Below, in pieces: positions 43,135 to 64,000 of a stretch of DNA of 64,000 bases. Source of the DNA: Alphaproteobacteria bacterium (GTDB taxonomy: Bacteria; Pseudomonadota; Alphaproteobacteria; UBA9219). Location of the stretch: the NCBI GenBank assembly GCA_009779135.1, contig WREW01000001.1, positions 94,233 to 158,232 on the forward strand, read 5' to 3'. The stretch's first letter is position 1; each line of letters begins with the position of its first letter. Made by a program: the position numbers and the translations under genes. The notes beneath the pieces are model-generated. The model did no database searches. It worked only from the letters and a program-made list of their open reading frames with translations, and had not been told where the DNA came from.

Positions 43135-43145
43135 TCCCCCCTTTT

Positions 43146-43251: not shown

Positions 43252-43341
43252 AAAAAGGGCCAGATCCTTTTTTATTGATGAAAAAAAAAGATTTGAGGTG
43301 TAAAAAGAGTCAAGAGCCTCAAAAGAGAGAAAGACAAAACC

Positions 43342-43614
43342 ATGGATGCACATTGGCGCAACACGCAGCGGGTGGTTCGCTTCACCTTTTTGGATGCGCG
43401 TTCCTTTATAGGCATTGTGTTTTTCCTTGTGCATTTGCGTCTTTGGGTTCTGGGGATGGCGGTCGTCATCCTTATTATTTTCTGGATTTTTGAGCGTTTT
43501 GGCCTTTCTTTTCAGTCCGCCCTGCGCGCGATGCGCTGCTGGTTCTGGGGCCGCAATCGTCCGGCCAACAGCCTAAGGGCGCGGCGCCGCACCATTGACA
43601 CGGGCTCCATATAA
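43342..43614 (+). CDS. IcmT/TraK-like small inner-membrane protein
   Basis: 90 aa; HWRNTQRVVRFTFLDARSF then one hydrophobic helix, matching my recollection of the IcmT/TraK N-terminal HWRD...FFLDAR pattern; position after the dotB-like gene, as in R64 traJ-traK. Confidence 0.5.
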   Translation: MDAHWRNTQRVVRFTFLDARSFIGIVFFLVHLRLWVLGMAVVILIIFWIFERFGLSFQSALRAMRCWFWGRNRPANSLRARRRTIDTGSI

Positions 43615-43937
43615 AAACGGCATCATTTTATATGCCGCTTGGTAAGGGAAAATTAAGCTTTACCAAAAACAAAAGCCCGTAAAGCCGTGTTTAAACGGGC
43701 ATCAATTTTGATTCATGTTCGAAACGAGCCTTTGTCTTTGAAGCGCAAAAAGCGTCCGCCGGTTTTCGCGCGCAAAGGAAAAAAAGAAAGCGCAGAATCA
43801 TCATTCCCCAAGATCTGTTGTGGAAACGCCACAGTCATAAGGCTATTCCAAAGGGCGATTCCGACGCGGTTGCTCCTCTGTTATTTATCGCCTACCATTC
43901 TCGAGTGATTCGCCTTAGCTCGACGAAGGGCCTAAAT

Positions 43938-45026: not shown

Positions 45027-45037
45027 CGAGGAACCAC

Positions 45038-46591: not shown

Positions 46592-47871
46592 TGGCAACGG
46601 GTGTTGTTACCGTTGGCCGGCGTCAGTACGCAAGCGGCCTTTATTGGGAAAACAGCCCGAGCGGACGCATTTCCCAAGCGGCCAAAGAAGCCGCCCGCCA
46701 ACCTTCGGTAAGGGCCGCCTATTACGCCGCCCGCGCGGGCAACAAGCAAGGGCGCGTTCCCCAGTTCGGTCTGGCGCCGGAAACCCCGGGCTTGAAATCG
46801 GATATGCCCTCTTTGGCGGGATGTCTTGCCAACCAGCAGCCCGGCTCATGGATCGGCGCTTTCCGTCTAAGGGAAGGCGTTTCGCTTGTCATCGTCCGCG
46901 ATGACCTGATTGTCCCTGACGGCGATTTATTCTTCAATGACGAGACAGAAGCCCGCGACCATCTTTATCAGGAAATGGGTGTCGGCGGCTTCCAGCGCAC
47001 TTATGCGCCGGACTCTTGGGGGGTACCCGGGGCCGACACCATGCCGCTGGCGCTCCTTCTCAACGATAAAACAGACATCCGCCTGCGCTCGGTGGAGCTT
47101 TCCAAAGCCGCCAAAATAGGGTTTTTAATCGGGACGGTCGTGGTTTTGCTGATCGTTGCAGGCAGCTGGTGGTATCAGGCCGACAAAGCCAAGCAAGCAG
47201 AGCTGCGCCGCCAGCAAATGGAAGCGCTTGAGCGCATGCGGCGCGCCAAAAGCCCGCTGGATCCCTTTGGCGGCGGCCCGCCCGAATATCCCAAACCCGT
47301 CCGCAAATGGGAAAATGAGCCTCGGCCACTGGAAATAATCGAAGCCTGCCGCAAAGCGCTTGAAAAAGTCTCAACCAGAATCGCAGGATGGCGCACGGAC
47401 AGCCATAAATGCACCCCGGGCACCTTGACCGTCCGCTGGGCGCGCAGCACAGGCAATGCCGCCCCGCCGCCGGACTCTTTGGTCAATGACTCGGCCAATT
47501 CGGCCACCCGCAGCGTCTCTTTAGGCCTGTCCAAGCGGGGGCCAGAGGATCTTGTGGACCCAGATGTCATCACGCAGCGCTATCTTAACCAGAATTGGGG
47601 GGCAAACCACTCAAAGGGCCGGCTTAAACGCCTGCCGGACGACCCCCTGCCCAAGCCGCCGCCGAACTATAAAGGGGAATGGAATCCACCCCCCCCGCCC
47701 TGGGTTAAGCGTTCTTTTACGATTGAGGTGCAAACATTACCCGGGCAGTCAACATATTATCTTGAAGGCATACCGGGTTTAACCATCAGTTCAATATCCT
47801 ATCGTGGAGCGGGGCTGGCTGTAAATGGAACCTGGGCTATTGAAGGAGTGATTTATGAAAATCGCCGCTAA
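46591..47871 (+). CDS. PilO-like thin-pilus assembly protein
   Basis: 426 aa (R64 PilO ~430 aa); single TM at ~190; immediately follows the secretin gene with a start/stop overlap; assignment by position and size. Confidence 0.45.
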   Translation: MATGVVTVGRRQYASGLYWENSPSGRISQAAKEAARQPSVRAAYYAARAGNKQGRVPQFGLAPETPGLKSDMPSLAGCLANQQPGSWIGAFRLREGVSLVIVRDDLIVPDGDLFFNDETEARDHLYQEMGVGGFQRTYAPDSWGVPGADTMPLALLLNDKTDIRLRSVELSKAAKIGFLIGTVVVLLIVAGSWWYQADKAKQAELRRQQMEALERMRRAKSPLDPFGGGPPEYPKPVRKWENEPRPLEIIEACRKALEKVSTRIAGWRTDSHKCTPGTLTVRWARSTGNAAPPPDSLVNDSANSATRSVSLGLSKRGPEDLVDPDVITQRYLNQNWGANHSKGRLKRLPDDPLPKPPPNYKGEWNPPPPPWVKRSFTIEVQTLPGQSTYYLEGIPGLTISSISYRGAGLAVNGTWAIEGVIYENRR

Positions 47872-48652
47872 ACTTTCGCTAACGGTTCTGGCTGTTTGTG
47901 TGGGCTTTGGGCTTGTTCAGCTTGCTCAGGCACAAAACACAGCCGCGCCTGAAGCTGCACCTGTCGCCGCAAGCACGGCCAATGAAGATTCCGCAGCTGT
48001 GCGGGATGCGCTAAACGCCATTGATATGCCGTCAGCGCCAGCGCCGCTGCCGCCACCGCCGCCCAAGGTTGAAAAACCCGTAAGCCCCGCGCCGTCAAGC
48101 AAAGGAATTGACCTTAGCGATGCAACGGAAGAGTCAAGCGTTGTTCCGGCCTCTGTCAAAAAAATCGTTGATCGCCTTGATAACACGACCAAGGAAATCA
48201 TGCTGGAAGATTTGAACGCCGCGCGTGAAGCCATCGTAAAACTGGACGTCTTGATCGACATTGAAAAAAGACTGACCAACCTTATGGACATCCGGCGTGA
48301 TCGGGACGAAGCGGCGGCCGCAGCGGCGCCCCCGCCCGGACGCGGCATGCCCCCACCCCCGCCGCCGATTTTTGATATGCCGATGCCCGTCATGCCCATG
48401 CCGCCCATACCGCAGGATATGAGTTTCGGCCGCGATCCTGAAATCGTCCGCATCGTTGGTGCCGGTGGAAACTACATGGCGCAGATGAGGGATGAGGGCG
48501 GTGCCGTCAAACAACTCCGTGTCGGCGACAAGCTGCCCAATGGTTCCACGGTTTCTTCCATATCGCGCAATGGTGTGACATTGACGATGAGCGACAAAAA
48601 GACCAAGACCGTTCAAGTGCAGGATGTTGGAACTATTTTCAGCAACCGCTAA
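47855..48652 (+). CDS. PilP-like thin-pilus assembly protein (Pro-rich)
   Basis: Signal peptide; Pro-rich linkers; C-terminal beta-rich region typical of pilotin/PilP-like proteins; positional. Confidence 0.4.
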   Translation: MKIAAKLSLTVLAVCVGFGLVQLAQAQNTAAPEAAPVAASTANEDSAAVRDALNAIDMPSAPAPLPPPPPKVEKPVSPAPSSKGIDLSDATEESSVVPASVKKIVDRLDNTTKEIMLEDLNAAREAIVKLDVLIDIEKRLTNLMDIRRDRDEAAAAAAPPPGRGMPPPPPPIFDMPMPVMPMPPIPQDMSFGRDPEIVRIVGAGGNYMAQMRDEGGAVKQLRVGDKLPNGSTVSSISRNGVTLTMSDKKTKTVQVQDVGTIFSNR

Positions 48653-48703
48653 GGAAGAACATGGCCAGGGGAAGCTGAAGTCGGTTTGCAATGTTAAGAA
48701 TGG

Positions 48704-50647
48704 TTGAAAATTGTGCGCGATCTGATTGGGGAAATAAAAGATAAATTATCCTCGGCTTTGACGGGGCCGACTTCGGCTGCGCCTGAAACGCCTTCGCCCG
48801 CAGCTCCCAAAGCACCACCAGCCGCAAAACCGGCATCAAGCGCTTCCGCGCGCCCGACGGCCTCGGCAACGCCGCCCAAGGAAACCCCGCCCGCCGGCAA
48901 TAAATCATCTTCATCCCAAAAACAGCTTCATGATGATACGTCTGACTCCTCCAAGGTAAAGGTTGAAGATGAACGCAGTCTGGCCGTTGAAGGCGGGCTT
49001 GAGTTTACGGGCACGGTTCTGACGTCCGAAGACGGCGCGCTTAAAATACCTACCGAATCGCGCAATCTGTGCGTTTTGTTCGACAACGGCATGTGGCTTG
49101 TAAGCGCCTCGCACAGGCTTTCGCCGCTTGTGACATCTGTGGCGCAAATGGCAAGGCGTCACGGCTACAAGATCAATCCGCCGCGCTATGTTACGCCTAA
49201 TATTGTCCGCGCGGCCTATCTTTATGCCGACCGCCAGAACGCGGTTATGCGCCTTGATGACAACACGGTGCGCCGCCGCATTGTGGAAACGCTGCAAAAA
49301 GCCGCCAATGCCGGCGCCAACGATATTCATATCGAAGCCAGCGAAGGCCGCACGCGCATCGAGTTCCGCATTGATGGCGCTTTGCGCCTATGGGAAACAT
49401 GGACGCAAAAGGAAGGGGAGCTGATGCTCGCCTCCGTCTATTCGCACTCGGTGGGCCAATCCGGCGCAACCGCCAACTGGCAGGAGCCGCAAGCGGCCAT
49501 GCTCACCTCCACGGCCACGGGACCGGACACGCTGGCGCTGCCCAAAGGCGTGATCTCGGTGCGCTGCCAGTGGGTGCCTTTGTCGGATGGCGGGCGCTAT
49601 CTTAATATGCGCCTTCAATATGACTCGGCGCATTTGTTTGGCGAAAACTTTATTATGGCGGACGTGGACTCGCTTGGTTTTTCGCAAGAGCAGCTCAAGG
49701 TCGTCAAAAGCCTGCGACAGGCCCCGGGCGGCATGCGCATTTTTGCGGGGCCGGTGAATCAGGGTAAAACGACAACCCTGCGCGTGACGCTCAATCGCCG
49801 CATGGCTGAAACCAATATGCAGCTTAACTGTCTTTTGGTGGAAGATCCACCCGAAGGCGGCATTGTCGGCGCAAGACAGGTGGGTGTGTCATCCTCGGTC
49901 AAAGATGAACAGCGCGAAAAATCCTTTGTCGAGATCATGCGCTGCATGCTTCGTCTTGATCCTGACATCGTGATGCTTGGTGAGGTGCGCGATATTCAAA
50001 CGGCCCAGTTTGCCTTTCGTCTGGCTCTGACGGGACGTCAGGTCTATACGACAACGCACGTTTATTCGGCTCTGGCGGTTCCGCAGCGTCTGCGCGACAT
50101 CGGGATGGAGCCTTATCTTGTTTATGACTACCACCTTGTGCGCGGCATGTTCTGTCAGCGGCTTTTGCGCGGCATGTGCTCTTATTGCCGGATTCCTCTG
50201 GCGCAGGTGGCGGATGAATATGGGCCTCTCTACAGCGATCTTATGAGCCGCATAAGATGCGGTCTTGCGCTGATGGATGCTTCGCGCTCTGTCGGCACAG
50301 GCTCGCCCCTTGATCGTTTGTCCGAGCCGGATCTGAGCAATATTTATTTCGCCAACCCCGAAGGATGCAAACACTGCTTTAAAGGGCGGGTAGGCCGTAC
50401 CATCTGCGCCGAAGTGATCGAAACCGACCAGAGAATCATGGAGCTTTTACAGGACAACCGCATGGAGGATGCGCGTGAATACTGGCTTTCACCGACAGGC
50501 ATGAACGGCGTGACCATGCTATGGCATGCGCTTGAAAAAATCCGCCGTGGTGAAGTTTCTCCGGATGACGCCGAGTTTGAAGTGGGCTACCTTGCAAGTG
50601 AAAAAGACATCGTAGAAATCGAAAAAAGGCTGGGAGAAACCGCATGA
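48704..50647 (+). CDS. PilQ-like pilus assembly ATPase (GspE/PilB family)
   Basis: Walker A GPVNQGKTTTL; VMLGEVRD; tetra-Cys CSYC...CKHC zinc motif; N-terminal Ala/Pro-rich low-complexity extension. Confidence 0.85.
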   Translation: MKIVRDLIGEIKDKLSSALTGPTSAAPETPSPAAPKAPPAAKPASSASARPTASATPPKETPPAGNKSSSSQKQLHDDTSDSSKVKVEDERSLAVEGGLEFTGTVLTSEDGALKIPTESRNLCVLFDNGMWLVSASHRLSPLVTSVAQMARRHGYKINPPRYVTPNIVRAAYLYADRQNAVMRLDDNTVRRRIVETLQKAANAGANDIHIEASEGRTRIEFRIDGALRLWETWTQKEGELMLASVYSHSVGQSGATANWQEPQAAMLTSTATGPDTLALPKGVISVRCQWVPLSDGGRYLNMRLQYDSAHLFGENFIMADVDSLGFSQEQLKVVKSLRQAPGGMRIFAGPVNQGKTTTLRVTLNRRMAETNMQLNCLLVEDPPEGGIVGARQVGVSSSVKDEQREKSFVEIMRCMLRLDPDIVMLGEVRDIQTAQFAFRLALTGRQVYTTTHVYSALAVPQRLRDIGMEPYLVYDYHLVRGMFCQRLLRGMCSYCRIPLAQVADEYGPLYSDLMSRIRCGLALMDASRSVGTGSPLDRLSEPDLSNIYFANPEGCKHCFKGRVGRTICAEVIETDQRIMELLQDNRMEDAREYWLSPTGMNGVTMLWHALEKIRRGEVSPDDAEFEVGYLASEKDIVEIEKRLGETA

Positions 50648-51741
50648 ACATCGACATGGAAGATTTCGGCCGCCGGATCGCGCAGCTTCAATTCAAAAAC
50701 AGCCGCAAGCAGAGAATGCGCGTTTATCGCAAGCTTGAAGGCATGCTGCGCATGAACGAAGCTCTTTCGCGTGCGCTGGATCGCCTTTTTCAAAATGCTT
50801 CCGAGATGGGCAAATACCCAAACCGCCCCGCCGCGCGCGCGCTAAGGGAATGGTTTTTGAAAGACCGCGCCGGACAAGGCCTTTCCGAAGCCATGGACGG
50901 CTGGGTGCCTGATGCGGATATTTACATGATTCGCGCAGGGGAAGAGTCAGGCGCGATGGCCAAATCCCTCAAATCCATCCAGACCATGGGAGAGCGGGCC
51001 AAGCAAATGCGCGCCGCCGTGACGTACGCCATCGCCTACCCGGGTTTTATGCTTTTGCTTGTGGCGGGCGTGCTTTGGATGTTCGGCGTGCAGCTTATTC
51101 AAAACATGCGCAAGACCGCCCCGCCAAGCGTTATGGCCGCCATGGGCGGCGTGGGTGCCGTTTCGGATTTTATTGCGAATTGGGGCATATGGATTTTAGT
51201 CGGGATTTTCGTGGCGGTCATCATCATTGCCGTCACCATGCCTGTCTGGACGGGAAAAATCAGGATCAAGCTCGACAAATATCCGCCATGGGCGTGGTAT
51301 CGCGTGGTGCAAGGCAGTGGTTTTCTTTTGGGCCTGTCCTCGCTTTTAGGCTCGCAGGTTCCCCTCAAGCGCGCGCTTGAGATTTTGGAAGAACAAGCCC
51401 GCCCGTGGCTGCGGGAGCGCGTGCATGCCGCCCGTCAGGAAGTTTTGCGCGGTCGTAATCTTGGCGAGGCGTTGCGCACAGGCGGGTATAATTTCCCCGA
51501 CCCTTCCGTTGCGATTGACCTTGAGATTTTATCAGAGCGCGCGGATGTCGGCACGGTGATTGAAGAAGTGACCGATGAATGGATTGAAGACCAGATTGAA
51601 ATGCTTCAAGCCCAAGCGGTGGTGGCGCGCAATGTCGGCCTTGTGGTTGTGGCCGGAACGATTGTCTGGGCCTTCCGCTCCGTCTTTGCGGTTGTTGAGG
51701 CGGTGTCCAAAACCGGAAGCGGCGGCGGCGGCATGATGTAG
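50644..51741 (+). CDS. PilR-like inner-membrane platform protein (GspF/PilC family)
   Basis: 365 aa (the same length class as R64 PilR); three TM clusters with cytoplasmic domains in a GspF-like arrangement; overlaps the pilQ stop. Confidence 0.75.
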   Translation: MNIDMEDFGRRIAQLQFKNSRKQRMRVYRKLEGMLRMNEALSRALDRLFQNASEMGKYPNRPAARALREWFLKDRAGQGLSEAMDGWVPDADIYMIRAGEESGAMAKSLKSIQTMGERAKQMRAAVTYAIAYPGFMLLLVAGVLWMFGVQLIQNMRKTAPPSVMAAMGGVGAVSDFIANWGIWILVGIFVAVIIIAVTMPVWTGKIRIKLDKYPPWAWYRVVQGSGFLLGLSSLLGSQVPLKRALEILEEQARPWLRERVHAARQEVLRGRNLGEALRTGGYNFPDPSVAIDLEILSERADVGTVIEEVTDEWIEDQIEMLQAQAVVARNVGLVVVAGTIVWAFRSVFAVVEAVSKTGSGGGGMM

Positions 51742-51755
51742 AAAGAGAGATTGCC

Positions 51756-52424
51756 TTGAAAAAGAGAATCCATCTTTTAAGCGCCCTGAAACACTCGCGC
51801 AAAGGGTTCAGCCTTATGGAGATCGCCATTGTTCTTGGCGGCGTGGGGCTTGTTTTGGCGGCGGTGTGGGCGGTGGCGGATGTTGTCTGGCATGGCTATC
51901 ACTTCAGGAAAATGTCGCAGCAGATCACGACAACGACCCAGAATATCCGCACCCATTTCAGCCCGCGCGGCGGCATTTATATGCCCGGAACAGACCAACC
52001 CTATAATGTAGGCGAGGATCTTGAAGCCATGGTGAAGTTTTTACGGCTTATTCCCATAGAAATGCGCGAAGATCCCACGCGGGGCGATGACCCCGTTCAT
52101 CATGCTCTAGGCTCGGGCGACACAAGCAGCTTTCTTGTCAGGGCCGCCCAAAATAACGTAGGCGAAGCAACGTCGAAACGTTTTGAAATCATGGTGCGCC
52201 ACCTGCAGCGAAGTGATTGCATGCGGCTTTTAATGGAGTTTCCTGCTTTAATCCCCGAAATAGGCGTCCGCAGGGTATGTACAACAGCGGTCTGCTACAA
52301 CATTAATCCTGATGTCCCCGACACGGCGGACAATCAGGTCTTTCCCCTGACGCTGACAACGGCGGAAAGAATGTGCTCCAATCCGGATGGTGAGAACGAT
52401 GTCTCTTTCACTTTTATCCTTTAA
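51756..52424 (+). CDS. PilS-like type IVb prepilin (major pilin)
   Basis: Long basic leader ending ...RKG then FSLMEIAIVLGGVGLVLAAVWA; Gly(-1) and Glu(+5) prepilin signature with a hydrophobic helix. Confidence 0.75.
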   Translation: MKKRIHLLSALKHSRKGFSLMEIAIVLGGVGLVLAAVWAVADVVWHGYHFRKMSQQITTTTQNIRTHFSPRGGIYMPGTDQPYNVGEDLEAMVKFLRLIPIEMREDPTRGDDPVHHALGSGDTSSFLVRAAQNNVGEATSKRFEIMVRHLQRSDCMRLLMEFPALIPEIGVRRVCTTAVCYNINPDVPDTADNQVFPLTLTTAERMCSNPDGENDVSFTFIL

Positions 52425-53052
52425 ACGACCTCAAGTCGGCAAAAACAGCCGCGCCGGCTACACGCTTCTTGAAATGGGCCTCGTCATGATTGTGATGGTG
52501 ACGCTTTTTGCATCGCTTTGGGTGGTTGTGGCGCTGGTGACCCAGTCGATTTACCGCAAGCAGACCGTCAATCAAATCCTGCTTACGATCAACAATGTGC
52601 GCGATTTTTACACATCAAGCCTGCGCGTGCAGACGCCTGCGGGAAGCTCGGCAGCGGCGGATTTGACCAACTATCTTTTACGCCGTGGCGTTTTGCTGCC
52701 CGACCAGATCCGTGACCGCACGGCGGCCGTCTGGGTGGCGGATCTCCCTTGGGGGCCTGTGGCGGCGTCAGGCACCGTGATGAATGAAGGCGGCTTTGCC
52801 ATTGACGCGGCAGGGATTGATTCCTCGCGTTTCTTCAGATTGACGCTACGCGGCCTCAGCCGTTCAAATTGCATCACATTGTCGCCGGCCTTGACAGGGG
52901 TTGGCATGCCTGAAGGGCTGACAAGCGTGACCATCAATGACAATGCCCCTTCGCAACCCCCCGTGTCGCCGGATCAGGCAACCATTGAATGTGTGGAGCC
53001 TGAGGGTTTGGCGAACACGATTGAGCTCGTTTACAACCTAAGACGGGCGTAA
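52387..53052 (+). CDS. PilV-like minor pilin/adhesin (no shufflon)
   Basis: Leader ...NSRAG then YTLLEMGLVMIVMVTLFASLW prepilin signature; overlaps the pilS 3' end; no repeated 19-bp shufflon sites or rci recombinase nearby. Confidence 0.6.
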   Translation: MVRTMSLSLLSFKRPQVGKNSRAGYTLLEMGLVMIVMVTLFASLWVVVALVTQSIYRKQTVNQILLTINNVRDFYTSSLRVQTPAGSSAAADLTNYLLRRGVLLPDQIRDRTAAVWVADLPWGPVAASGTVMNEGGFAIDAAGIDSSRFFRLTLRGLSRSNCITLSPALTGVGMPEGLTSVTINDNAPSQPPVSPDQATIECVEPEGLANTIELVYNLRRA

Positions 53053-53186
53053 CGGAAACAAAATATCCGTTGTTTTTCAATGCCATGCAAAAAAATCCCA
53101 AAAAAGGCAAAATTGTGCATTATTTTCGTGATTTACTTTCACAACATGTGCTATAAGAGCGTCAGTTTTTTCAAAGGTCATAAGGG

Positions 53187-53693
53187 ATGGCAGTAGCTAT
53201 GGACATGAAAAACGAAGATGACCCCGCACAGAAAAACCAGAAATCCGTTTCGGCATCCATAAGCGGAATAGGACTTTCTTGGGCAGATCAAGATGATCTG
53301 TTGCGGCAGATGTGGCTGGATGGAAAACCGCAGGATGACATTGCGGCGGCGCTTGGACGCTCGGCAGCCGCGATTATGACGCGCGCGGCGCGTTTAGGCC
53401 TGCCGCGCCGCATGGCGCCGGGACGCAAGCGCGGCTATAAGCGCACCAACAGCAATGAGCGGCGCAAACTGGCCGCCGCCGGATCGCGCCGGATTCGCCT
53501 TGCTTTGCCGGAAGCGCCGGAGGAAGAAGACGTTTACGTGCCGCCTGAAGTCAAAACGCGCGTTTGCCTGATGTGCCTGAACAAGTTTCAATCGCAAGGA
53601 CGGCATAACCGCTTATGTTCTTCCTGCAAGGGCTCGGCGGATTATGCGACAGGCAACAGCACGCCGGACTTTACCTTTTCGGTTTCGAATTAA
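53187..53693 (+). CDS. GcrA-family cell-cycle-regulator-like protein
   Basis: N-terminal LSWADQDDLLRQMWLDGKPQDDIAAALGRSAAAIMTRAARLGLPRR matches the GcrA HTH pattern (W..E....L..LW..G.S...IA..LG...R.A...K..RLGL); basic linker; C-terminal CLMCLN...CSSCK Cys cluster. Confidence 0.6.
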   Translation: MAVAMDMKNEDDPAQKNQKSVSASISGIGLSWADQDDLLRQMWLDGKPQDDIAAALGRSAAAIMTRAARLGLPRRMAPGRKRGYKRTNSNERRKLAAAGSRRIRLALPEAPEEEDVYVPPEVKTRVCLMCLNKFQSQGRHNRLCSSCKGSADYATGNSTPDFTFSVSN

Positions 53694-53766
53694 CACAGCA
53701 TGCGGACAAATTGAGCTGGCGTCAGCCGTAGTTTTGCGTTTATACTAAAAACGCAAAAACGCCCTT

Positions 53767-54423
53767 TTGAAAGAGGTCATGATGTCGCTGAACGATGCTG
53801 TCTCCACAGTTTTATCGCGCAATACATTTTACCGCGATGGCTACAGGCTCCTGCTGCGTATCAGCCTGATTCAGGGCCTTGTAATTATTCTTTTGATCGC
53901 CTCGATTGTCACGATCGTTCTTTCGCTGGAAACGCGGTATATTTATTTCGCCACCACGGCGGATGGCCGCATCATCAATATTGTGCCTTTGAACGAACCC
54001 TACCGCACGCGCGGGGACGTGATTGCTTGGGCTGCGGGACGGGCGCAGGATGTGATGCGCTTTGGCTATAATGATTTCCGCCAGCGTTTGCAGGAATCAT
54101 CACAGCATTTCTCGGAAACAGGATGGGCCAGCTTTACAAAAGCCATGAAAGACGCCCGCATTCTGGAGGCTGTTGAAGGCCGCAAGCTGACGGTGGCTTT
54201 GGATGTTAACTCCGCCCCAGAGGTGCGCCGCGCCTTTGTGAATGAAGGCGTTTACACCTGGATTTTACAGTTTCCGGCCACCATTCGCTTTGACGGGCCG
54301 CAGGCGCCGCAGCCGATGCAGATTATCTTGACGCTTCAAATCGTGCGCGTCTCAACCCTGCAAAATCCGGCGGGAATCAGTATTGAGCAATGGATTGCCT
54401 CGCCTCGGGCAGGAGGAGGTTAA
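53767..54423 (+). CDS. DotI/IcmL/TraM-like T4BSS inner-membrane protein
   Basis: 218 aa; single N-terminal TM (LIQGLVIILLIASIVTIVLSL) then periplasmic domain; size and topology of IcmL; followed by a paralog, as with icmL/icmM in Legionella. Confidence 0.6.
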   Translation: MKEVMMSLNDAVSTVLSRNTFYRDGYRLLLRISLIQGLVIILLIASIVTIVLSLETRYIYFATTADGRIINIVPLNEPYRTRGDVIAWAAGRAQDVMRFGYNDFRQRLQESSQHFSETGWASFTKAMKDARILEAVEGRKLTVALDVNSAPEVRRAFVNEGVYTWILQFPATIRFDGPQAPQPMQIILTLQIVRVSTLQNPAGISIEQWIASPRAGGG

Positions 54424-54428
54424 GCGCC

Positions 54429-55163
54429 ATGCCGCAGAAGCCTCCGGAAACAGCCGCGAAGGCACCTTCTGGGCCTGAAAAAAAGAAAGCGCCCCCCAAG
54501 GTCAAAAAGGGGTGGAGTTTTTTCGATGATTCGCCCCCGCCTCAGGCGCTGAAAGGCGATCAGCTTTTCATTTATAAAAAACATAAAAATCTTTTAAGGC
54601 ACATCAGAAGGCAGACCTATATCATCATCATCCTGACCTCGGCCCTTTTTTTGACGCGGCCCTTTTTTCAGCCCATCATGGTCTATGTCGGCCTTGCGCC
54701 CCAGCTTCATGAAAGGCGCGAACTGCCGCTTGTCGCGTTGACCGAGCCGAATCTGACCGACCGGGCCGTCTTATCTTGGGCCACGGCAAGCATTACGGAG
54801 ATCCTGACCTTTGGTTTTGGTGATCTTGACGCGCGGCTTATCGGCCAATCCAGCCGGTTTACGGAAGATGGCTGGATCAGCTTCGTGAAAAGCTTTTTTG
54901 AGCGCGATTTGCAGGCAAGCTTCAAGGGCCGCCAGCTTGTTTTGACCACGGTGCCTGCCGATTCGCCGGTGATTACAGGGCGCGGCGCGGATCCGGACGG
55001 CGATTACGTCTGGAATGTTCAGATGCCCGTGGTGATGACCTATGCAACAAATAACAATGTTCAAAGCCGTGTGCGTAAAGTGGTTCAGCTTACGATTGCC
55101 CGGGTTCCCGCCAAGAAAAATATAGGGGGATTAGGCATAAAAGCTTGGAAAATGCTAGGCTAA
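54429..55163 (+). CDS. DotI-paralog (DotJ/IcmM-like) T4BSS protein
   Basis: GGAGGAGG RBS; Pro/Lys-rich N-terminus, one TM, periplasmic domain alignable to the preceding protein (LNEPYRTRGDVIAWAAGRAQDVMRFGYNDF versus LTEPNLTDRAVLSWATASITEILTFGFGDL). Confidence 0.55.
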   Translation: MPQKPPETAAKAPSGPEKKKAPPKVKKGWSFFDDSPPPQALKGDQLFIYKKHKNLLRHIRRQTYIIIILTSALFLTRPFFQPIMVYVGLAPQLHERRELPLVALTEPNLTDRAVLSWATASITEILTFGFGDLDARLIGQSSRFTEDGWISFVKSFFERDLQASFKGRQLVLTTVPADSPVITGRGADPDGDYVWNVQMPVVMTYATNNNVQSRVRKVVQLTIARVPAKKNIGGLGIKAWKMLG

Positions 55164-55359
55164 GCCGGATAAAAGGTGAAAGGCACCAAAAGCCTTGGGA
55201 AAAGCCTGAAAAGAATGCTTTCAACTTCTTGACCTAGGCCATAGGGTATGAAATAGGATGGCCATGGGAAAGTAAAAGAGATAAACGATATCTTAACACT
55301 CTTAGAGTGAAACAAGATATAAGTATATCCGGACGTTCAACCTGATTCGGGGATGGCAA

Positions 55360-56496
55360 TTGTTGTATAAACAGGGACGAAAAATAGCCGCATCCGTTGT
55401 CCTTGGCGCGGCTTTGACAGGTCTAATGACATGCGCGGCTGTGACAGCTTGGGCGCAGACAGGGCCAACGGCGCAGGCTATACCGCAGGATCTTTTGGAA
55501 GCGTTGCGTGAAGGCGCGCCAGTTCCGCCCCCCCCCAGTCCGCCCGCCGAGCAAGCGCAGAACAAAGAAAATGAAAGAGGGATTGAGCTCGACAGCCTCC
55601 CCCCCCTGCCGGAAATAACGGCCGAGCAGATGCTTTTGGAAAGACAGGCCTTTGAAGCCGCAGAAGCCGCCCGCGAGGAGGAAGAACGGATCCGCAAGGA
55701 AGAAGAGCATAACCGCAGATCCTACAAGCGCGCCACAGAAGGCCTTTTCCCGCTGACGCCGGAGCAGATTCGCCATTTCATGGAAAGGCTTGAAGCAACG
55801 CAGGCCGTCTCTGAGATGCCCTCTGGCGGCCAGCCGCAGGGCGAAGTCAAAATTGTCCATCTTTCTTTGGACCCCGGCGGGCAGCCGCCCACCATCAATC
55901 TTGCCGCAGGCTATGTCACCACCATTGACCTTATCGATCAGACGGGGGAGCCTTGGCCGATCGCGGACGTTGGTGTAGGCGGAAACTTTGAAGTCACGCC
56001 GACCGAGGCCGGCTCGCATGTTGTAAGGGTGATTCCTTTAACGCGGGTGGGCACGGGCAATCTGTCGATTTTGCTGAAAGGCCTTTCAACGCCGATCATC
56101 TTCAGACTATCTGCGGGCGGGCCGACTTTTCACATGCGCTTTGACGCCAGCGTGCCGCAGCTCGGCCCCAACGCAAAAACGCCTTTGATTAAGCAGCGGC
56201 GCGGCGTTGTGGCAGGGGATGTGGCCATGACGATGATTTTGGAGAATGCACCGCCTGACGGGGCGCAGCGTTTGAGGGTGGGCGGCCTTGATGCCCGCAC
56301 CATGGCTTGGCAGCTTGGGGGTCGGGTTTATGTGCGCACGCCGCTGACTTTGCTGTCACCGGCTTGGAATGCCAGCGCATCTTCGGCGGATGGAATGACC
56401 GTTTATGAAATCGGCGATGCGCCGGTGCTTTTGGTATCTGATAACGGCGCCATGATAAGGGCGCGCCTTATGCGGGATGAAAATGATGTCAAATAA
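55360..56496 (+). CDS. DotH/IcmK/TraN-like T4BSS outer-membrane-associated core protein
   Basis: Signal peptide; Pro-rich and acidic linker; C-terminal beta-rich domain (KIVHLSLDPGGQPPTINLAAGYVTTIDLID...); 378 aa versus IcmK 360 aa; position after the DotI-like pair. Confidence 0.55.
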   Translation: MLYKQGRKIAASVVLGAALTGLMTCAAVTAWAQTGPTAQAIPQDLLEALREGAPVPPPPSPPAEQAQNKENERGIELDSLPPLPEITAEQMLLERQAFEAAEAAREEEERIRKEEEHNRRSYKRATEGLFPLTPEQIRHFMERLEATQAVSEMPSGGQPQGEVKIVHLSLDPGGQPPTINLAAGYVTTIDLIDQTGEPWPIADVGVGGNFEVTPTEAGSHVVRVIPLTRVGTGNLSILLKGLSTPIIFRLSAGGPTFHMRFDASVPQLGPNAKTPLIKQRRGVVAGDVAMTMILENAPPDGAQRLRVGGLDARTMAWQLGGRVYVRTPLTLLSPAWNASASSADGMTVYEIGDAPVLLVSDNGAMIRARLMRDENDVK

Positions 56497-57982
56497 CATG
56501 GACGACGAATTCACCGAGTCTTTCGAGCCGTTTGAGGACCCCTCGGAAGCGCCTCAAAAGCCAAGCGTCAAGCAAGGGCTAAAGGAAGCTTGGCGCACCA
56601 AGCCGATCCTGAAGCTTCTGGTCATCATGGCCGTTGTGATTATATCGCTGACCGTTGTTTTGGCCGCAACATCAGGCAAGCGTGAAGCGCCTGTTACACA
56701 GCTTGCGCGCGCGCCCGAACTCCGCGAAGTCCCCGGCGGCACAGCCACGCCCTTTTTCATTGAGCAAAATGACGCCGCCAACGAAGCACGCGCGCGTCAA
56801 GCCTTAACGCAAGGCGGCAGCGCCATGCCGACCCCTGTGGGCCGTCAGGTGGAAAACCCGAAAGACATCAAAGCCGATCCGTTAAGGGAGTTCCGTGAGG
56901 AAACAGAACGTCTGCGTACCCAAAGGACGGAGCAAGATCAGAAGATCCGCGAACTTGAACGTCAGCTGGCTACCCCACGCCCTGCAACGCAGGCGCAGGT
57001 ACAGCCGCAGCAGCGACAGCAGCAGCAACAACAGCCGCCGGATAACACCCTTGCGCAGGCCATGCAAAAGCAGATGCAGGCATTGCTGAAAGGGTGGGAG
57101 CCGACACATGCGCGGTTTGTCAAAGGCGCCAAAAGCGGTCTTGAAGATACGGCAACCGGCAAAACGCAGCAAATCTCAGGCACGCCGCCGCCCGGATGGT
57201 CTTCTCTGAAATATGGCGGGGCCAAGATTATAGTGGCAGCTGGCACCGTGAACTATATTCAGCTTTTGAATGAGGCCAATTCAGATGTGCCCGGGCCGAT
57301 TTTGGCGCAGATTCTTTCCGGGCCTTTTTCGGGCGGACGGGCGATCGGCACCTTTCAGGTGATGGAAAACCATCTGGTCATGACCTTTAGAAGCGTCGCT
57401 TGGAACGGAAGTGAATATTCCATCAATGCGCTTGCTTTGGATCCCGACACGACACTTGGCGGCATGGCCACGGAAGTTGACAATCGTTATTTTATGCGCG
57501 TCGTGCTTCCGGCAGCAGCGGCTTTTGTGTCGGAGTTCGGCACGATTCTTGGCGAAACAAGAACAACCACCACGGCCCAAGATGGCGTCATATTCTCAGA
57601 ACAGACCAAAAGAGGCTATAAGGAAGCTCTCTATTCAGGTCTGGGCTCGGTGGGCCAATCCGTGGCAGGATTCCTGCGCAGTGAGGCGAGCCGGACGAGA
57701 AAAATGGTGCGTGTCGCTGTGGGAACGCCAATGGGTCTGTTTTTCCTTCAATCCGTCATGGACCCGAGGGATCCGGATACATTACAGCAGCCCCCTCCGC
57801 CGAATGACCTGACCATCCCCACGCCACAGACCAGCAGTTCTTACCAGACGCAACCTTATCAGGACAATATGGCAACGCAGGACGGTCAGCTTTCACGCGA
57901 ACAGCTCAATCAAATAATGGCCAACATGCCCAGCTCGCGTCCTGTCAATGCAATGCCGATGAACGCGCCTTATCAGCAATAG
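56477..57982 (+). CDS. DotG/IcmE/TraO-like T4BSS core protein (VirB10-like C-terminus)
   Basis: N-terminal cytoplasmic stretch, single TM (ILKLLVIMAVVIISLTVVLAA), Gln/Pro-rich coiled-coil linker and C-terminal TrbI/VirB10-like beta domain; overlaps the dotH-like stop. Confidence 0.5.
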   Translation: MKMMSNNMDDEFTESFEPFEDPSEAPQKPSVKQGLKEAWRTKPILKLLVIMAVVIISLTVVLAATSGKREAPVTQLARAPELREVPGGTATPFFIEQNDAANEARARQALTQGGSAMPTPVGRQVENPKDIKADPLREFREETERLRTQRTEQDQKIRELERQLATPRPATQAQVQPQQRQQQQQQPPDNTLAQAMQKQMQALLKGWEPTHARFVKGAKSGLEDTATGKTQQISGTPPPGWSSLKYGGAKIIVAAGTVNYIQLLNEANSDVPGPILAQILSGPFSGGRAIGTFQVMENHLVMTFRSVAWNGSEYSINALALDPDTTLGGMATEVDNRYFMRVVLPAAAAFVSEFGTILGETRTTTTAQDGVIFSEQTKRGYKEALYSGLGSVGQSVAGFLRSEASRTRKMVRVAVGTPMGLFFLQSVMDPRDPDTLQQPPPPNDLTIPTPQTSSSYQTQPYQDNMATQDGQLSREQLNQIMANMPSSRPVNAMPMNAPYQQ

Positions 57983-58043: not shown

Positions 58044-59369
58044 ATGGCAAATAAAGACGATACGGATCTGGATCTTGAAAATCTGGAAACAGAAAGCGCC
58101 GAAACGCTTTCGCCGGATTCCGATGGCGCGGCCGAGGAATGGAAGGATGAACTTCCGCCCGAAGATGATTTTCACGATATGGAAGAACAGATCGAAGATG
58201 TTCTTGAAGAAATGCCGTCCGAAGAAGACCAACAATCGCATGAAAATCAAAACAAAGGCAAAAGCGGAAAGAAAACGCTTTTCCTGCTTCTGCTTGTGGG
58301 CGTGGTTGTCTTGGGCGGTCTTGCTTATTTCCAATTTTCATATCTGGATGGTGAGGAGGCAACCGGCCCTATACCGCTTGCAGGCATTGTAAATGCGCCG
58401 CCAAAACAGCAGGCCGCCAGCAATGAAAAAGGCATGTCCTCTTCAGAGATGCGGAACGCCTATCAACCGCCTGCTGGGCCTCAGAACGGCTATGTGGCTG
58501 TGCCTGCGTCATCTGCGGCGTCAGAACAAAACGGGCTGCAGGAACAGGAAAAGCCTATCATCAGCGGAATCCTTTCCAGTGACGCCGTACCCGTCAGGGA
58601 ACCTGCGGCTGTGCCTGCGCCGCTATGGCATGATCCTTTGCCGCTGCCGGCACCCGGGAAAGCCGTAGCGGAACCGCCACCGCCTATAAAAGAAGTACAG
58701 GAAATAGCCACCATTGCGCCGCTTCCTGTGGCGCCGCCTGTGAAAGAAGTGCAGGAAATAATCGCCATCGCGCCGCTTCCTGCGGCGCAACCTGCGCTGC
58801 CGCGCGCGTTGGATGAAAGGGAACAGGCGCGTTTTGATGCCTTGACCGATCAAGTTCAGGCGCTTCAAAAAACAGTGGATCAGGTTGTCAGCAAAAATGA
58901 AGCTTTGATGGCGCAGATCGACAACCTGCAAAGCCAGCTTTCAGACAGCGCGGCGAAACCCGATCAAGCTTTGCAAGACAAGGTGACGCAACTTGAAGCG
59001 CAACTTGCTGCGCTCAAGAATGATAATATGCGCGGCATCAATCTTGCGCCCGCATCTGAAGTCACAACTTTAGCCGCCGTGAAAAAACCGGTAGCAACAC
59101 CCAAAGCCGCCGCCAAACCGGCCCCGGCCAAAAAAGCCACCGCGCCGGCCAAGGCCGCCAAGCCAGCCCCCCTCCCAGCCGTTAAAAATGAGGGCTGGGT
59201 CTTGAGGGCGGCCACGCCGGAGGCCGCCTGGGTCTCGGCGGGCATGGCCTCGCAGGATTTCCGCCGCATCCGTGTGGGGGAGGAGCTCCCGGGCCTAGGA
59301 AAAGTTAACCAAATCCGCCAGATAGATGGTCGTTGGGAGGTTGTAACGGAGAAGGCTATATTGCAGTAG
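58044..59369 (+). CDS. DotF/IcmG/TraP-like T4BSS protein (acidic N-terminus, TM, Pro-rich repeats, coiled coil)
   Basis: TM KTLFLLLLVGVVVLGGLAYF; internal tandem repeat PPPIKEVQEIATIAPLPVAPPVKEVQEIIAIAPLPAA; coiled coil; assignment mainly positional (icmE-icmG order). Confidence 0.4.
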   Translation: MANKDDTDLDLENLETESAETLSPDSDGAAEEWKDELPPEDDFHDMEEQIEDVLEEMPSEEDQQSHENQNKGKSGKKTLFLLLLVGVVVLGGLAYFQFSYLDGEEATGPIPLAGIVNAPPKQQAASNEKGMSSSEMRNAYQPPAGPQNGYVAVPASSAASEQNGLQEQEKPIISGILSSDAVPVREPAAVPAPLWHDPLPLPAPGKAVAEPPPPIKEVQEIATIAPLPVAPPVKEVQEIIAIAPLPAAQPALPRALDEREQARFDALTDQVQALQKTVDQVVSKNEALMAQIDNLQSQLSDSAAKPDQALQDKVTQLEAQLAALKNDNMRGINLAPASEVTTLAAVKKPVATPKAAAKPAPAKKATAPAKAAKPAPLPAVKNEGWVLRAATPEAAWVSAGMASQDFRRIRVGEELPGLGKVNQIRQIDGRWEVVTEKAILQ

Positions 59370-59543
59370 CGAAGGAAAAAAAGAGCGAAAAGAATAAATT
59401 AGGCCCAAAAAAAGAGAGAAAATTTCTCTCTTTTTTTATAAAAATTAACGAGGTCTTTAATAGTTTCATGCACAATAGTGGGTAGGAATGTGTCATAATA
59501 AAGGCATAAGGTTTAACAAAGCCTTTTTTTGGGAGTTGGTACG

Positions 59544-60563
59544 ATGCTCTATAAGGGGCCAGATAACCAAGTCAAACATAAGACCAGCGCTTTGCTGATG
59601 CTGGTCTGGGGTGTTCTTTTTAGCTTTCTTCTTACCGGCATACCCATCGAGCTTTGGGCGCAGGTGCCCACACCGCCCGACCCCACACCGATACTCGGCG
59701 GAGGGGATACGGGTGACGATACGCTGGGCCAGCTGGTTTGCAATATTAATAACAATGCCGACGGCTATACTTTTATCCTAAGCGTCATTGCCTGGATCGT
59801 CGGTGGGTTTCTTATTGTCCGTGGCGTCTTGCTGCTCAGAAAGAGCGCGGATGATCCCAATAATTCACAAGTCACCAAAGCGGTCGCGCACTTTATCGCC
59901 GGCGCCGCGCTGATCGGCCTGCCGACTTTTGTCGGTGTTGTACGAAGAACCTTGTTCGGCGTTTTTGCCGGCGGAGGTCTGAACGCCTGTGTACCCGGGG
60001 CCACCGTCTCCGTATCTGGCGGGCAGGGCCTTGACATTATGATGCAGAGCTTTGTCCGCAATATGTATGGACCGATGTTCACCCTTGTTTCCGTTTTAGG
60101 TATTCTGATCGGCTTGACCTTTATTGTAAAAGCTTTGCTGGCCGGCGCGGCCACGGGCACGGACCCGCGCACATCCAACCCTAAAACCATTATCACCAAT
60201 CTGGTCATAGGCGCGGTGCTGGTTTCGCTTTCTACGGTTTTGCCGGATGTCTTGGGCTCTATCTTTGCCAGCGGCGAGGTCAGCAATGTCAGCCAATACA
60301 GCGCCATCGCATGGTCTAAGGTGGTGGGCGATGCCGACACAACAGCCATCAACAATACGGTTCGCGCGGTTCTGGCCTTTATTCAGATTATTGGCGTTAT
60401 TGCCTTTTTGCGGGGCTGGCTGCTTATAAAAACCGCCATGGATGGCGGACAGGCTACGGTTCCGCAAGGCGTTGTCCATGTGGTGGCTGGTGCTATGGCC
60501 TTGAATATCGACAAGATGATCGAAGTTTTCAACAACACCTTCGGGCTGGATTTGTTGACATAA
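59544..60563 (+). CDS. DotE/IcmC-like polytopic inner-membrane protein
   Basis: ATG 59544 with GGGAG RBS; at least 6 TM helices; contains a KSADDPNNSQVTKAVAHFIAGAALIGLPTFVGVVRRT block paralogous to the following small protein, as for the IcmC/IcmD pair. Confidence 0.45.
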   Translation: MLYKGPDNQVKHKTSALLMLVWGVLFSFLLTGIPIELWAQVPTPPDPTPILGGGDTGDDTLGQLVCNINNNADGYTFILSVIAWIVGGFLIVRGVLLLRKSADDPNNSQVTKAVAHFIAGAALIGLPTFVGVVRRTLFGVFAGGGLNACVPGATVSVSGGQGLDIMMQSFVRNMYGPMFTLVSVLGILIGLTFIVKALLAGAATGTDPRTSNPKTIITNLVIGAVLVSLSTVLPDVLGSIFASGEVSNVSQYSAIAWSKVVGDADTTAINNTVRAVLAFIQIIGVIAFLRGWLLIKTAMDGGQATVPQGVVHVVAGAMALNIDKMIEVFNNTFGLDLLT

Positions 60564-60701
60564 AAAACGTTGTTAAAGGGTAAACCCTGAAAAAAGAAAG
60601 GAGGTACAAGGACAAGTGAAAGGAAAAAAACATCGGTAAGGTCTTTTTAGACCGCAAAAAATAAGCTAAACTGAAAAAACTAAACAAAAGAGGAGAGAAC
60701 C

Positions 60702-61085
60702 ATGAAGAAAGAAACAATGAACAAAAGCATGCAATTCGCACTGATTGCAGCGGTCTTCACAATGGCAATGCCTGGGCTTGCCATCGGTCAGGACATGAGC
60801 AGTGTTATCACAGACGTTGGTACAACCCAGTTGTCTGTTATTCCGTGGATTTTGACAATCGTGTGTTACATCATGGGCGCGTTTTTCATGGTGAAGGGCG
60901 CACTGAAGCTGAAAAAGCACGCGGAAAATCCTTCAGGTCAGGACACAGTCGGTCAGGGCGTTGCCAACTTAGCTGCTGGTGCTGCTCTTGCCGCTATCCC
61001 GATGTTCCAGGGTATCATCTTCAGAACATCGAAAATGAGTGGTGATGAACAAGGTTGGCAGGCTTTCCAAACCACGTTCAACTAA
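60702..61085 (+). CDS. DotP/IcmD-like small inner-membrane protein
   Basis: 127 aa; two TM helices; KKHAENPSGQDTVGQGVANLAAGAALAAIPMFQGIIFRTS motif shared with the preceding gene; strong RBS AGGAGAG. Confidence 0.5.
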   Translation: MKKETMNKSMQFALIAAVFTMAMPGLAIGQDMSSVITDVGTTQLSVIPWILTIVCYIMGAFFMVKGALKLKKHAENPSGQDTVGQGVANLAAGAALAAIPMFQGIIFRTSKMSGDEQGWQAFQTTFN

Positions 61086-61914: not shown

Positions 61915-63144
61915 ATGAACGCATCTCTTCTTGATGACCTTTTGCGCGGCGTTGCCATTGAAACACCGCCCCGTGGCCTTGCGGGCAAGCTGAAAGAGAG
62001 CGAGAAAGAAAAACGCTCTCTTATCGTAAAGCTCGGCTTTGACCCGACCGCGCCGGATCTTCATCTCGGCCATGCGGTGGTTCTGCGCAAAATGCGCCAG
62101 TTTCAGGATGCGGGGCACAAGCTGGTGATTATCATCGGCGACTTTACCGCGCGCATCGGCGATCCCACAGGGCGCAACAAAACACGCCCCCCCCTTTCGC
62201 CGGAAACCATCAAGCAAAACGCGCTGACCTATCTTGACCAGCTCTCCAAAGTTTTGGATATGAGCCGCGAGAAATTGAAAGTCTGTTTTAACGATGACTG
62301 GCTCGGCGCCATGACATTCCGCGATGTGATCGGCCTTCTTGCCAAAGCCACCGTAGCGCAGCTCTTGCAGCGCGAGGATTTCAGCAAGCGTTACAACGAA
62401 GGCACCGCAATCGGCATGCATGAAATGCTTTATCCCTTGATGCAGGGCTATGATTCGATTGAGATCAACGCGGACATCGAAATGGGCGGCACAGACCAGC
62501 TTTTTAATTGCCTTGTCGGTCGTGCGCTGCAGGAGGCTGAGGGCAAAAGCGGACAGATCGTTCTTTCCATGCCGCTCCTCGTCGGCCTTGACGGCAAGGA
62601 GAAGATGAGCAAATCCTACAATAACTATATCGGCCTGACCGAGCCGCCGCATGACATGTACGGCAAAGCCATGTCCATTCCCGATACGCTTTTGCCGATG
62701 TATCTGGAGCTGGCCACGACCTTGACCGCGCAGGAAATTGCGCGATTGAAAGAAGATCTGGCCGCAGACAAAGTCAACCCCATGGATGTAAAAAAACTTG
62801 TCGCCGCCAATATCGTGACCCAGTATCACGATGAAAAAAGCGCAGAAGAAGCGGCGCAGTATTTTTATAACCAGTTTCAGAACAAGGCAGATGAAGAAAA
62901 AAGCTATGAGCCGTTTGCCGCCGCGCAGATTTACGAAGGCGCGCAGGAACTGGCGCTTCTTGATCTCTGCGCCAGACTTTGCCCGCAGGAGTCGAAAAGC
63001 CAGTTGCGCCGCCTCATCGCCGCTTCAGCCGTCAGCGTGGATGGAGAAAAACTCACAGACCCTGCCGCGTTGATAAAGCCGCCGGTTGATAAAGAAATCC
63101 ACTTCCGCATCGGCAAACGCGGCTTTTACGCCATTATATCCTGA
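61915..63144 (+). CDS. tyrS: tyrosine--tRNA ligase
   Basis: HLGH motif ([10 protein letters not shown]) and KMSKS motif ([10 protein letters not shown]); C-terminal S4 domain; 409 aa. Confidence 0.95.
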
Positions 63145-63145
63145 T

Positions 63146-63222
<77 letters not shown>

Positions 63223-63429
63223 ATAGCCTTGCTTTACTTATGGCTATAGGTGCTTTAATAATTCCTCGATTAATTGCTGCAAAAGTCCATTTTTTGCCTT
63301 AACACCTATTTTAATACACTTTAATGGCAATTTTTAACAGGAATTTGTTATTTTTTCAGTTTAATGTTGACTTTTATAGCAGAAACGGTTATATTTAAAA
63401 ATAAGAAACGGCTTATCTGGAGAAGCAAG

Positions 63430-64000
63430 ATGATAAAAGAACTGAAAATTTCTAATTTTTATAGCATAAATAAAACTCAAGCCATATCCTTTGAAATCTC
63501 AAAAAAGGATATGCTGGATAATTCTTCTTTTATGTCTCCTTGCGGCAATATGTTAAACAGCATTGCTGTAATTATTGGTAATAATGCCTCTGGAAAGACA
63601 AATATTTTAAAGGGCTTGTCGTTTTTAGGATGGTTTGTTGAAGCTTCTTATCAAGATCTGAAAATTGATCAAAAAATACCTGTTACAACGCACAAATTGT
63701 CAGAAGATAAAAACTCTTCATTTGAATTGATATTTGAAGAAGGCGGCAAGGAATATCAATATAAAATTACATTAAATCCCGATGAAGTTGTCCATGAATT
63801 TCTTGGTGTCAAGAAAGAGCGGGGATATTCTTATCTCTATGAAATCAATAGAAGCAATGGAAAAGTATCTTATGATAAGTGGAATTTATCCAAGCTAAAT
63901 GACGACGATAAAGCCAGATTTGAGCAGCGTCTTAATGCTTCACTATTTTCATTTTTGTTAAGCACGGGACACCTGCCTGCCACTGGAATTAAAAGATTTA
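63430..64000 (+). CDS. AAA/OLD-like ATPase (3' truncated at window end) in an AT-rich segment
   Basis: GGAG RBS; MIKELKISNFYSINKTQAISFE ... VIIGNNASGKTNILKGLSFL: N-terminal pattern and Walker A typical of AAA_15/AAA_21-type ATPases found in defence/abortive-infection loci; GC content drops sharply after the tRNA. Confidence 0.6.
   Translation, partial: MIKELKISNFYSINKTQAISFEISKKDMLDNSSFMSPCGNMLNSIAVIIGNNASGKTNILKGLSFLGWFVEASYQDLKIDQKIPVTTHKLSEDKNSSFELIFEEGGKEYQYKITLNPDEVVHEFLGVKKERGYSYLYEINRSNGKVSYDKWNLSKLNDDDKARFEQRLNASLFSFLLSTGHLPATGIKRF

Follow-up and report, generated by a model that had tools for sequence, protein, structure and literature searches.

What is the AT-rich DNA that begins directly past a tRNA-Arg(CCT) gene near the end of a 64,000-nucleotide (nt) stretch of an alphaproteobacterial genome (contig WREW01000001.1; the whole stretch is called the window here), and to which system does the ATPase gene inside it belong? 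A preliminary description, made from the letters of the window alone, had proposed a probable island or defence locus. We consider it likely that the locus is a self-contained AbiL-type cassette for abortive infection (phage defence), acquired horizontally and lying directly 3' of the tRNA gene, with two genes that encode an AbiLi-type ATPase and a small AbiLii/RloB-type Toprim partner.

Composition and extent of the low-GC block

The ATPase gene was said to run past the end of the window, and it does. An exact look-up of the TyrS protein (61915-63144) returned a 301,934-bp ENA metagenome contig (L001), which was used as an extension of the window and shows no mismatches to it across all 12,086 shared bases. 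Window coordinates equal L001 coordinates plus 51,914, and positions past 64000 are window-equivalents read from L001. The best reading of the host is a Micavibrio-related alphaproteobacterial metagenome-assembled genome (MAG), with the cassette on the chromosome. The features that define the locus are as follows.

63146-63222, plus strand: tRNA-Arg(CCT), found by ARAGORN; intact, with CCA encoded; left border of the putatively foreign block
63233 to about 65340 (L001 11319-13426), no strand: low-GC block, from composition and a change-point fit; its in-window part is 63233-64000
63430-64653 (L001 11516-12739), plus strand: 407-amino-acid (aa) ATPase gene, from open reading frame (ORF) and profiles; the window holds 63430-64000, the first 190 codons
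64656-65240 (L001 12742-13326), plus strand: 194-aa partner ORF, starting 2 nt past the ATPase stop codon

Guanine-plus-cytosine (GC) content in 300-nt windows was 0.52-0.57 at 62750-63199 and 0.30-0.33 at 63200-63949. ARAGORN recovered the tRNA on the plus strand where it had been placed, and the abrupt drop described directly past it, from about 0.53 to 0.33, was seen as well. A maximum-likelihood two-change-point fit on L001 delimited a block of 2,108 nt with a GC content of 0.333 against 0.527 outside (log-likelihood ratio of 113). This is the lowest-GC 2.1-kb stretch of the 73 kb examined, 5.3 standard deviations under the mean. GC content at third codon positions (GC3) follows the same pattern, at 0.30 in the ATPase gene and 0.37 in the partner gene against 0.64 in tyrS, 0.59 in dotA and 0.56 in recQ. 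Together, the differences in overall GC and in GC3 support a foreign, horizontally acquired origin of the block DNA.

The block contains the ATPase and partner genes only, and extends for about 1.34 kb beyond position 64000. Host GC resumes to the right with a 910-aa DotA/TraY gene on the minus strand (TIGR04346, 9.7e-85), followed by RecQ, DUF3141 and sugar transferase genes. The gap of 2 nt between the two genes of the block suggests that their translation is coupled.

Identity of the ATPase and its partner

Translation of the first gene begins MIKELKISNFYSI and places IIGNNASGKTNILKG at residues 48-62, which agrees with the protein start and Walker A motif read previously. The PADLOC AbiLi model (PDLC02335) matches the full protein over residues 1-403 (9.5e-67, 223 bits), and Pfam AAA_21 matches it at 1.8e-32. 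For the 190-aa fragment inside the window, AbiLi was likewise the best PADLOC match (3.8e-22), with PtuA, GajA and Old at about 1e-5 to 1e-6. The AAA_15/AAA_21 assignment made from this fragment was also sound: its Pfam match is to AAA_21 (9.7e-15), and AAA_15 matches more weakly, falling below threshold together with SMC_N.

The nucleotide-binding motifs were compared across 44 homologues. In the Walker A motif at G50-T57 (GNNASGKT), residues G50, N52, G55 and K56 are invariant, as are E286, S287, G289 and T290 of the ABC (ATP-binding cassette) signature ESNGTQ at 286-291, the Walker B pair D313-E314 and the H-loop residue H348. The AlphaFold2 (AF2) model of the ATPase has a mean confidence (pLDDT) of 92. 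A sequence search of solved structures found no close relative, the best match being PtuA at 6.5e-5. By its sequence the protein is an ABC (Rad50/SMC-head-like) ATPase of the AAA_21/AbiLi family with the Walker A, signature, Walker B and H-loop motifs intact.

The partner is harder to place by single profiles. Its sole PADLOC match at E values up to 1 is a weak one to AbiLii (PDLC02337, 2.6e-4). No Pfam family matches above threshold; RloB comes at 5.7e-4 with 20.6 bits against a gathering threshold of 31.5. In an alignment of the partner family, E16-G17, R19, E20, G47-G48, W70, D72, D74, N109 and a PxLIVSxP strand are invariant. In the AF2 model (pLDDT 93.4), strand 1 is immediately followed by E16, and strand 3 ends with D72-E73-D74. 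The partner is therefore predicted from the model to have a Toprim fold with the canonical placement of the catalytic Glu and DxD motif, and with the acidic metal-binding residues intact.

An exhaustive profile search of 1.84 billion representatives returned 581 partner relatives at E <= 1e-3. Among 52 sampled relatives, 32 match PADLOC AbiLii and 30 match Pfam RloB. HHalign aligned the local subfamily with a shorter subfamily, 41 of whose 43 members are AbiLii-positive, over 168 columns with a probability of 100% and an E value of 2e-38; relative to the short AbiLii proteins, the local subfamily has about 25 extra aa inserted behind the DxD strand in this alignment. Because of the HHalign result and the AbiLii and RloB matches of the sampled relatives, we assign the partner, at the superfamily level, as a divergent AbiLii/RloB-type Toprim protein.

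PADLOC and DefenseFinder define AbiL by adjacent AbiLi and AbiLii genes. At this locus the ATPase is an AbiLi protein, the partner belongs to AbiLii at the superfamily level, and the two genes are co-oriented, adjacent and co-conserved. AbiL (Lactococcus lactis plasmid pND861, PADLOC model; also annotated RloA/RloB-like pairs) has the same operon, with an ABC ATPase of about 400 aa directly ahead of a small Toprim-fold protein. The partner here differs in having 194 aa rather than about 170, in the insertion after the DxD strand and in direct matches of only about 1e-4, below the Pfam threshold. The locations differ too: the lactococcal prototype is on a plasmid, whereas the present pair is chromosomal, beside a tRNA gene in a Micavibrio-like alphaproteobacterium.

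Several better known systems join related ATPases to nucleases, and the pair might instead belong to PARIS, Gabija, Septu or the class 1 OLD nucleases. The ATPase does match the PADLOC models of AriA (1e-34), PtuA (about 1e-13) and GajA/Old (about 1e-5), and its fold resembles those of PtuA and AriA. However, the AriA model (PDLC02980, 304 positions) covers the same residues (45-354) and the same positions (1-304) as Pfam AAA_21 and appears generic, and the AbiLi score is about 30 orders of magnitude better than that of AriA. PARIS combines an AriA ABC ATPase with AriB, a Toprim/DUF4435 nuclease of about 300 aa, and the partner here is not AriB. In the OLD family (P2 Old, class 2 OLD/GajA of Gabija, and the effectors of retrons Eco8 and Ec67) ATPase and Toprim are fused, whereas the two lie in separate genes here; a 407-aa ATPase without a fused Toprim excludes OLD and GajA, and the cassette has neither a GajB-like helicase nor a reverse transcriptase. 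Septu (PtuA and PtuB) uses an HNH nuclease as its effector where this locus has a Toprim protein. In PADLOC and Pfam scans the 194-aa partner had no match to AriB/DUF4435, HNH (PtuB) or helicase (GajB) families. Membership in any of these systems is thus very improbable, and the identity of the partner and the architecture of the domains led us to reject PARIS, Gabija, OLD and Septu.

The ATPase kinds first put forward (OLD, GajA, PtuA and abortive-infection ATPases) can be narrowed in the same way. A defence ATPase of the AAA_21/AAA_15 type is upheld, specifically of the AbiLi type; OLD and GajA drop out for want of a fused Toprim, and PtuA for want of an HNH partner.

Borders, homologues and upstream elements of the cassette

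The window might end inside a large integrase-borne genomic or defence island in tRNA-Arg, with attR and more defence genes beyond. The 3' ends of tRNA genes are classic integration sites, the GC drop starts right past the tRNA, and the last 10 nt of the tRNA recur imperfectly at the right border. Such an island typically combines an integrase with a repeat of the tRNA 3' end of at least 15 nt, and the locus has neither. Neither the 2.1-kb block nor the 8 kb that follow it contain an integrase gene. With up to 3 mismatches allowed, a search for the terminal 25 nt of the tRNA found no second copy in the 10 kb downstream, and across the 21-kb locus it matched the tRNA alone. Smith-Waterman alignment of the tRNA 3' half with the 9.9 kb downstream was no better than alignment with shuffled sequences, 15.5% of which did as well; for the 300-nt right border this share was 32%. 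A generic repeat finder returned only short AT-rich chance matches.

Since the low-GC block is over after two genes and is followed by DotA/TraY, RecQ, DUF3141 and sugar transferase genes at host GC, a large island is refuted for the present-day structure and survives only as history, as a decayed island of which the cassette is a remnant. Overall, we regard it as highly doubtful that the window cuts into such an element. The expectation that more of the element, with an integrase, would lie past 64000 accordingly failed, and the proposed check for a direct repeat of the tRNA-Arg 3' end as attR produced only a 10-mer with 9 of 10 matches. Of the two halves of the original proposal, the defence locus stands, as an AbiL-type pair, and the integrase-borne island falls with a block of only 2.1 kb.

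The imperfect direct repeat brackets the insert on the same strand. It pairs the last 10 nt of the tRNA, GGGGACGCCA (63213-63222), with GGGGTCGCCA, and the two are identical at 9 of 10 positions.

65351-65360 (L001 13437-13446), same strand as GGGGACGCCA: right-border repeat copy GGGGTCGCCA, from a 10-mer search

This copy sits 11 nt past the right GC change point, which was fitted independently. At up to 1 mismatch, about 1.3 chance matches to the 10-mer are expected per 21 kb on both strands; a same-strand 9/10 match within about 10 nt of the change point would arise by chance about 0.3% of the time, an estimate made post hoc. The repeat is suggestive and may be an insertion scar, the only possible trace of one at the locus, either as a 10-bp target duplication or as a micro-att site. 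The hypothetical empty site would read as the tRNA ending in GGGGACGCCA followed by TCTTTCTTGTCATCC.

A Logan contig (L097; SRR10512950_23670, 22 kb) ends at L001 13439, 2-3 nt into the right-hand repeat. This end at the cassette border could reflect an assembly-graph branch caused by strain-level presence and absence of the insert, or it could be coincidence. The population could accordingly be polymorphic for the insert.

The low-GC block might also be an assembly chimera, given that the source is a MAG contig and that the Logan contig breaks off precisely at the right border. Against this, an independent Logan assembly (run SRR10512950), built with a different assembler, has the same order of tyrS, tRNA, ATPase and partner with no mismatches over 4,698 nt. 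Because two different assemblers give an identical arrangement, the tyrS-tRNA-cassette junction is not an assembler artefact. On the 302-kb contig the host-GC flanks on both sides carry on the same Dot/Icm gene set, and a chimera would be unlikely to bring in 2.1 kb with promoter and two-gene operon intact. A chimera is extremely improbable.

Genomes with an empty site were sought through relatives of TyrS, using one genome per species. The best relatives, a Micavibrio sp. MAG and alphaproteobacterial MAGs, have 65-69% identity, and none has tRNA-Arg after tyrS. Scans based on DotA and on the exact right flank in JGI metagenome contigs both came back empty, and the exact TyrS look-up returned no contigs beyond those of the source organism.

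Homologous cassettes were found elsewhere. A search with the 190-aa in-window fragment gave a single match, a truncated 219-aa homologue, and the full-length query was required for the others. In every full-length locus examined, ATPase homologues of 43-68% identity are followed 0-12 nt downstream by a partner of 188-208 aa. This arrangement was found in L083, L084-86, L087-88 and L089, with the following settings.

L083: pair flanked by PHP/racemase genes on one side and DUF1653 on the other; tRNA-Val on the opposite strand, about 400 nt downstream
L084: pair adjoining two resolvases
L087: pair adjoining an integrase, HipA/HTH and a methyltransferase/ResIII system, a defence-island-like setting
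L089: another alphaproteobacterial MAG; pair between ccmC and an AsnC regulator

At the sequence level, ATPase and partner are shown to form one two-gene unit in unrelated genomic contexts. The GC content of the cassette is 0.23-0.34 in all hosts, below at least one flank in most. Adjacency to a tRNA gene is not general, L083 with its tRNA-Val being the sole case among the homologous loci.

The preliminary description had named a core, syntenic RecF-like ATPase as the result that would count against it. We looked for this pattern and did not find it; given the composition and the patchy distribution, a core-genome RecF/ABC ATPase was rejected.

The truncated 219-aa copy (L002, 1494-2945) has 68% identity and is the closest match to the in-window fragment. 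A phage-integrase gene on the opposite strand overlaps the 3' end of this ATPase, and a PIN_10/HTH_66 pair lies upstream. In L002, another mobile element seems to have interrupted the cassette.

Upstream of the ATPase gene, three elements were located.

63335-63350, plus strand: palindrome TAACA-GGAATT-TGTTA (TAACA-N6-TGTTA), from an upstream alignment of L001, L083 and L002; just upstream of the -35 hexamer
63367-63395, plus strand: predicted sigma-70-like promoter TTGACT-17 nt-TATATT, from a promoter scan with 10 of 12 matches; the ATG follows 35 nt downstream
63419-63422, plus strand: ribosome-binding site GGAG, from sequence; 7 nt before the start codon

The ribosome-binding site and the ATG at 63430 are thus placed as first described. 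In the homologous cassettes of other hosts the -35 and -10 blocks are largely kept, with 1-2 substitutions. Across the three closest cassettes the approximately 130 nt upstream of the ATG are partly conserved (overall column identity 69%), chiefly in a block of about 45 nt from the palindrome to the -35 hexamer and in the -10 hexamer. L001 and L002 retain the palindrome arms intact and L083 has them in degenerate form (TGACA/TGTTA); the element is a candidate operator, possibly autoregulatory. Since these upstream elements are conserved across hosts, the cassette appears to travel with its own promoter and a possible operator. No conserved sequence was found among the cassettes at the 3' end past the partner gene, nor any structure there (RNA fold z-score of 0.03).

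The cassette has no recombinase, and it probably arrived by recombination mediated in trans or as what is left of a larger tRNA-integrated element. That it represents a minimal recombinase-less defence module, moved in trans to insert at the extreme 3' terminus of tRNA genes, is a more specific idea, and one that we hold to be quite unlikely.

Predicted function and genomic neighbourhood

The cassette is predicted, from its sequence and structural models, to confer phage resistance by abortive infection. AbiL is grouped with PARIS and OLD as systems that pair an ABC ATPase with a Toprim protein (PMC11464382, PMC13064643). RloB/AbiLii is akin to OLD_TOPRIM (PMC10440598). The lactococcal prototype acts by abortive infection after phage transcription, through a mechanism that is not known (PMC13064643), and is the only AbiL reported to have been tested for phage resistance (Deng et al. 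1999, cited in PMC13064643).

If the pair works like PARIS (AriA/AriB), P2 Old and the AAA and Toprim_OLD pairs reported to behave as toxin-antitoxin systems, the ATPase oligomer would keep the Toprim nuclease inactive and serve as an infection sensor. A phage-derived trigger would alter the state of the ATPase and release or activate the nuclease. In PARIS, triggers such as Ocr release AriB, which then cleaves tRNA (PMC11464382, PMC13064643), and P2 Old is reported to be an abortive tRNase with the same logic of ATPase sensor and Toprim effector (bioRxiv 10.64898/2026.07.10.737580). The freed nuclease would in turn cleave nucleic acid, most likely tRNA as AriB and Old do, with DNA, the target of GajA, as the alternative; cleavage would halt translation or replication and so abort the infection. 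That tRNA is the target is plausible, at somewhat less than an even chance.

Alternatively, the pair might have no real anti-phage role in its host and serve as a selfish module of the toxin-antitoxin or addiction kind, or as an accessory, of the RloA/RloB type, to restriction-modification (R-M) loci. RloB was originally noticed in operons of type I R-M systems, and AAA and Toprim_OLD pairs act as toxin-antitoxin pairs in neutralisation assays (PMC10440598). Copies of the cassette are also scattered among housekeeping genes. However, no hsd or other R-M genes occur within 10 kb on either side, toxin-antitoxin and abortive-infection activities are compatible, PARIS being both (PMC13064643), and one homologue (L087) has a defence-island-like setting with HipA and methyltransferase/ResIII genes. 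We therefore consider a role of this kind unlikely, and favour the AbiL-type defence cassette.

Four points weigh against the latter. No empty-site genome was found, and we infer insertion and acquisition only from composition and patchy distribution. The direct AbiLii and RloB matches of the partner are weak and it carries the insertion of about 25 aa, such that automated callers relying on a single hidden Markov model may miss the pair. Phage and plasmid collections hold no close relative, the best having at most 31% identity. Finally, the sensor and effector scheme is for this subfamily an analogy only. Of the relatives in the phage and plasmid collections, one plasmid pair is annotated "ATP-binding protein / RloB family protein" and one gene of a Lactococcus prophage, with 22% identity, "abortive phage resistance protein".

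The locus is a divergent AbiL member of an already known class, and its practical value is modest. A pair labelled "AAA family ATPase" and "hypothetical protein" by NCBI is now assigned to the AbiL class of ABC-ATPase and Toprim defence systems, and a partner subfamily has been defined that current Pfam and PADLOC models barely detect (the 581 relatives being cluster representatives). With its compact size, high-confidence models and clear catalytic residues, the subfamily is a possible test case for AbiL acting like PARIS and Old via tRNA cleavage. This AbiLii subfamily, with its 25-aa insertion and, in part of it, the palindromic operator, could be a distinct AbiL branch with its own trigger and tRNA target. 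The locus also illustrates that a GC drop past a tRNA can be a two-gene mini-island and not a full integrative element. What is at all unusual about it, and only mildly so, is the 10-nt border repeat, the end of the Logan contig at the border and how poorly current models detect the partner.

The surroundings of the cassette hold a larger system. Window positions 41761-57982, together with L001 13575-16307 (window-equivalent 65489-68221), encode a Dot/Icm-type type IVB secretion system (T4BSS) and type IVB pilus cluster, whose Dot/Icm and pilus genes are interleaved with the chromosomal housekeeping genes pepN, polA and tyrS. Its components include DotB (TIGR02524, 6e-113), a PilN-type secretin (1e-73), GspE/PilQ-like, GspF/PilR-like and GcrA-like proteins, two DotI/IcmL copies, DotH/IcmK and DotG/TrbI, with DotA/TraY past the window on the opposite strand. 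Between dotA and the rest of the Dot/Icm set lie tyrS, tRNA-Arg and the AbiL cassette. That a Micavibrio-related (predatory) alphaproteobacterial MAG has a Dot/Icm system may merit separate attention.

The 3' part of dotA (L001 13580-13966) contains a 156-nt direct repeat with 79% identity and 231-nt spacing, and an adjacent 32-nt repeat. Their position in the C-terminal coding region of DotA/TraY indicates an internal repeat of the predicted protein. Milder low-GC patches occur in the window at 14001-16000 (0.44), 59300-59600 (0.37) and 60500-60800 (0.40), against a window mean of 0.53; the latter two are intergenic or small-ORF regions between T4BSS-associated genes.

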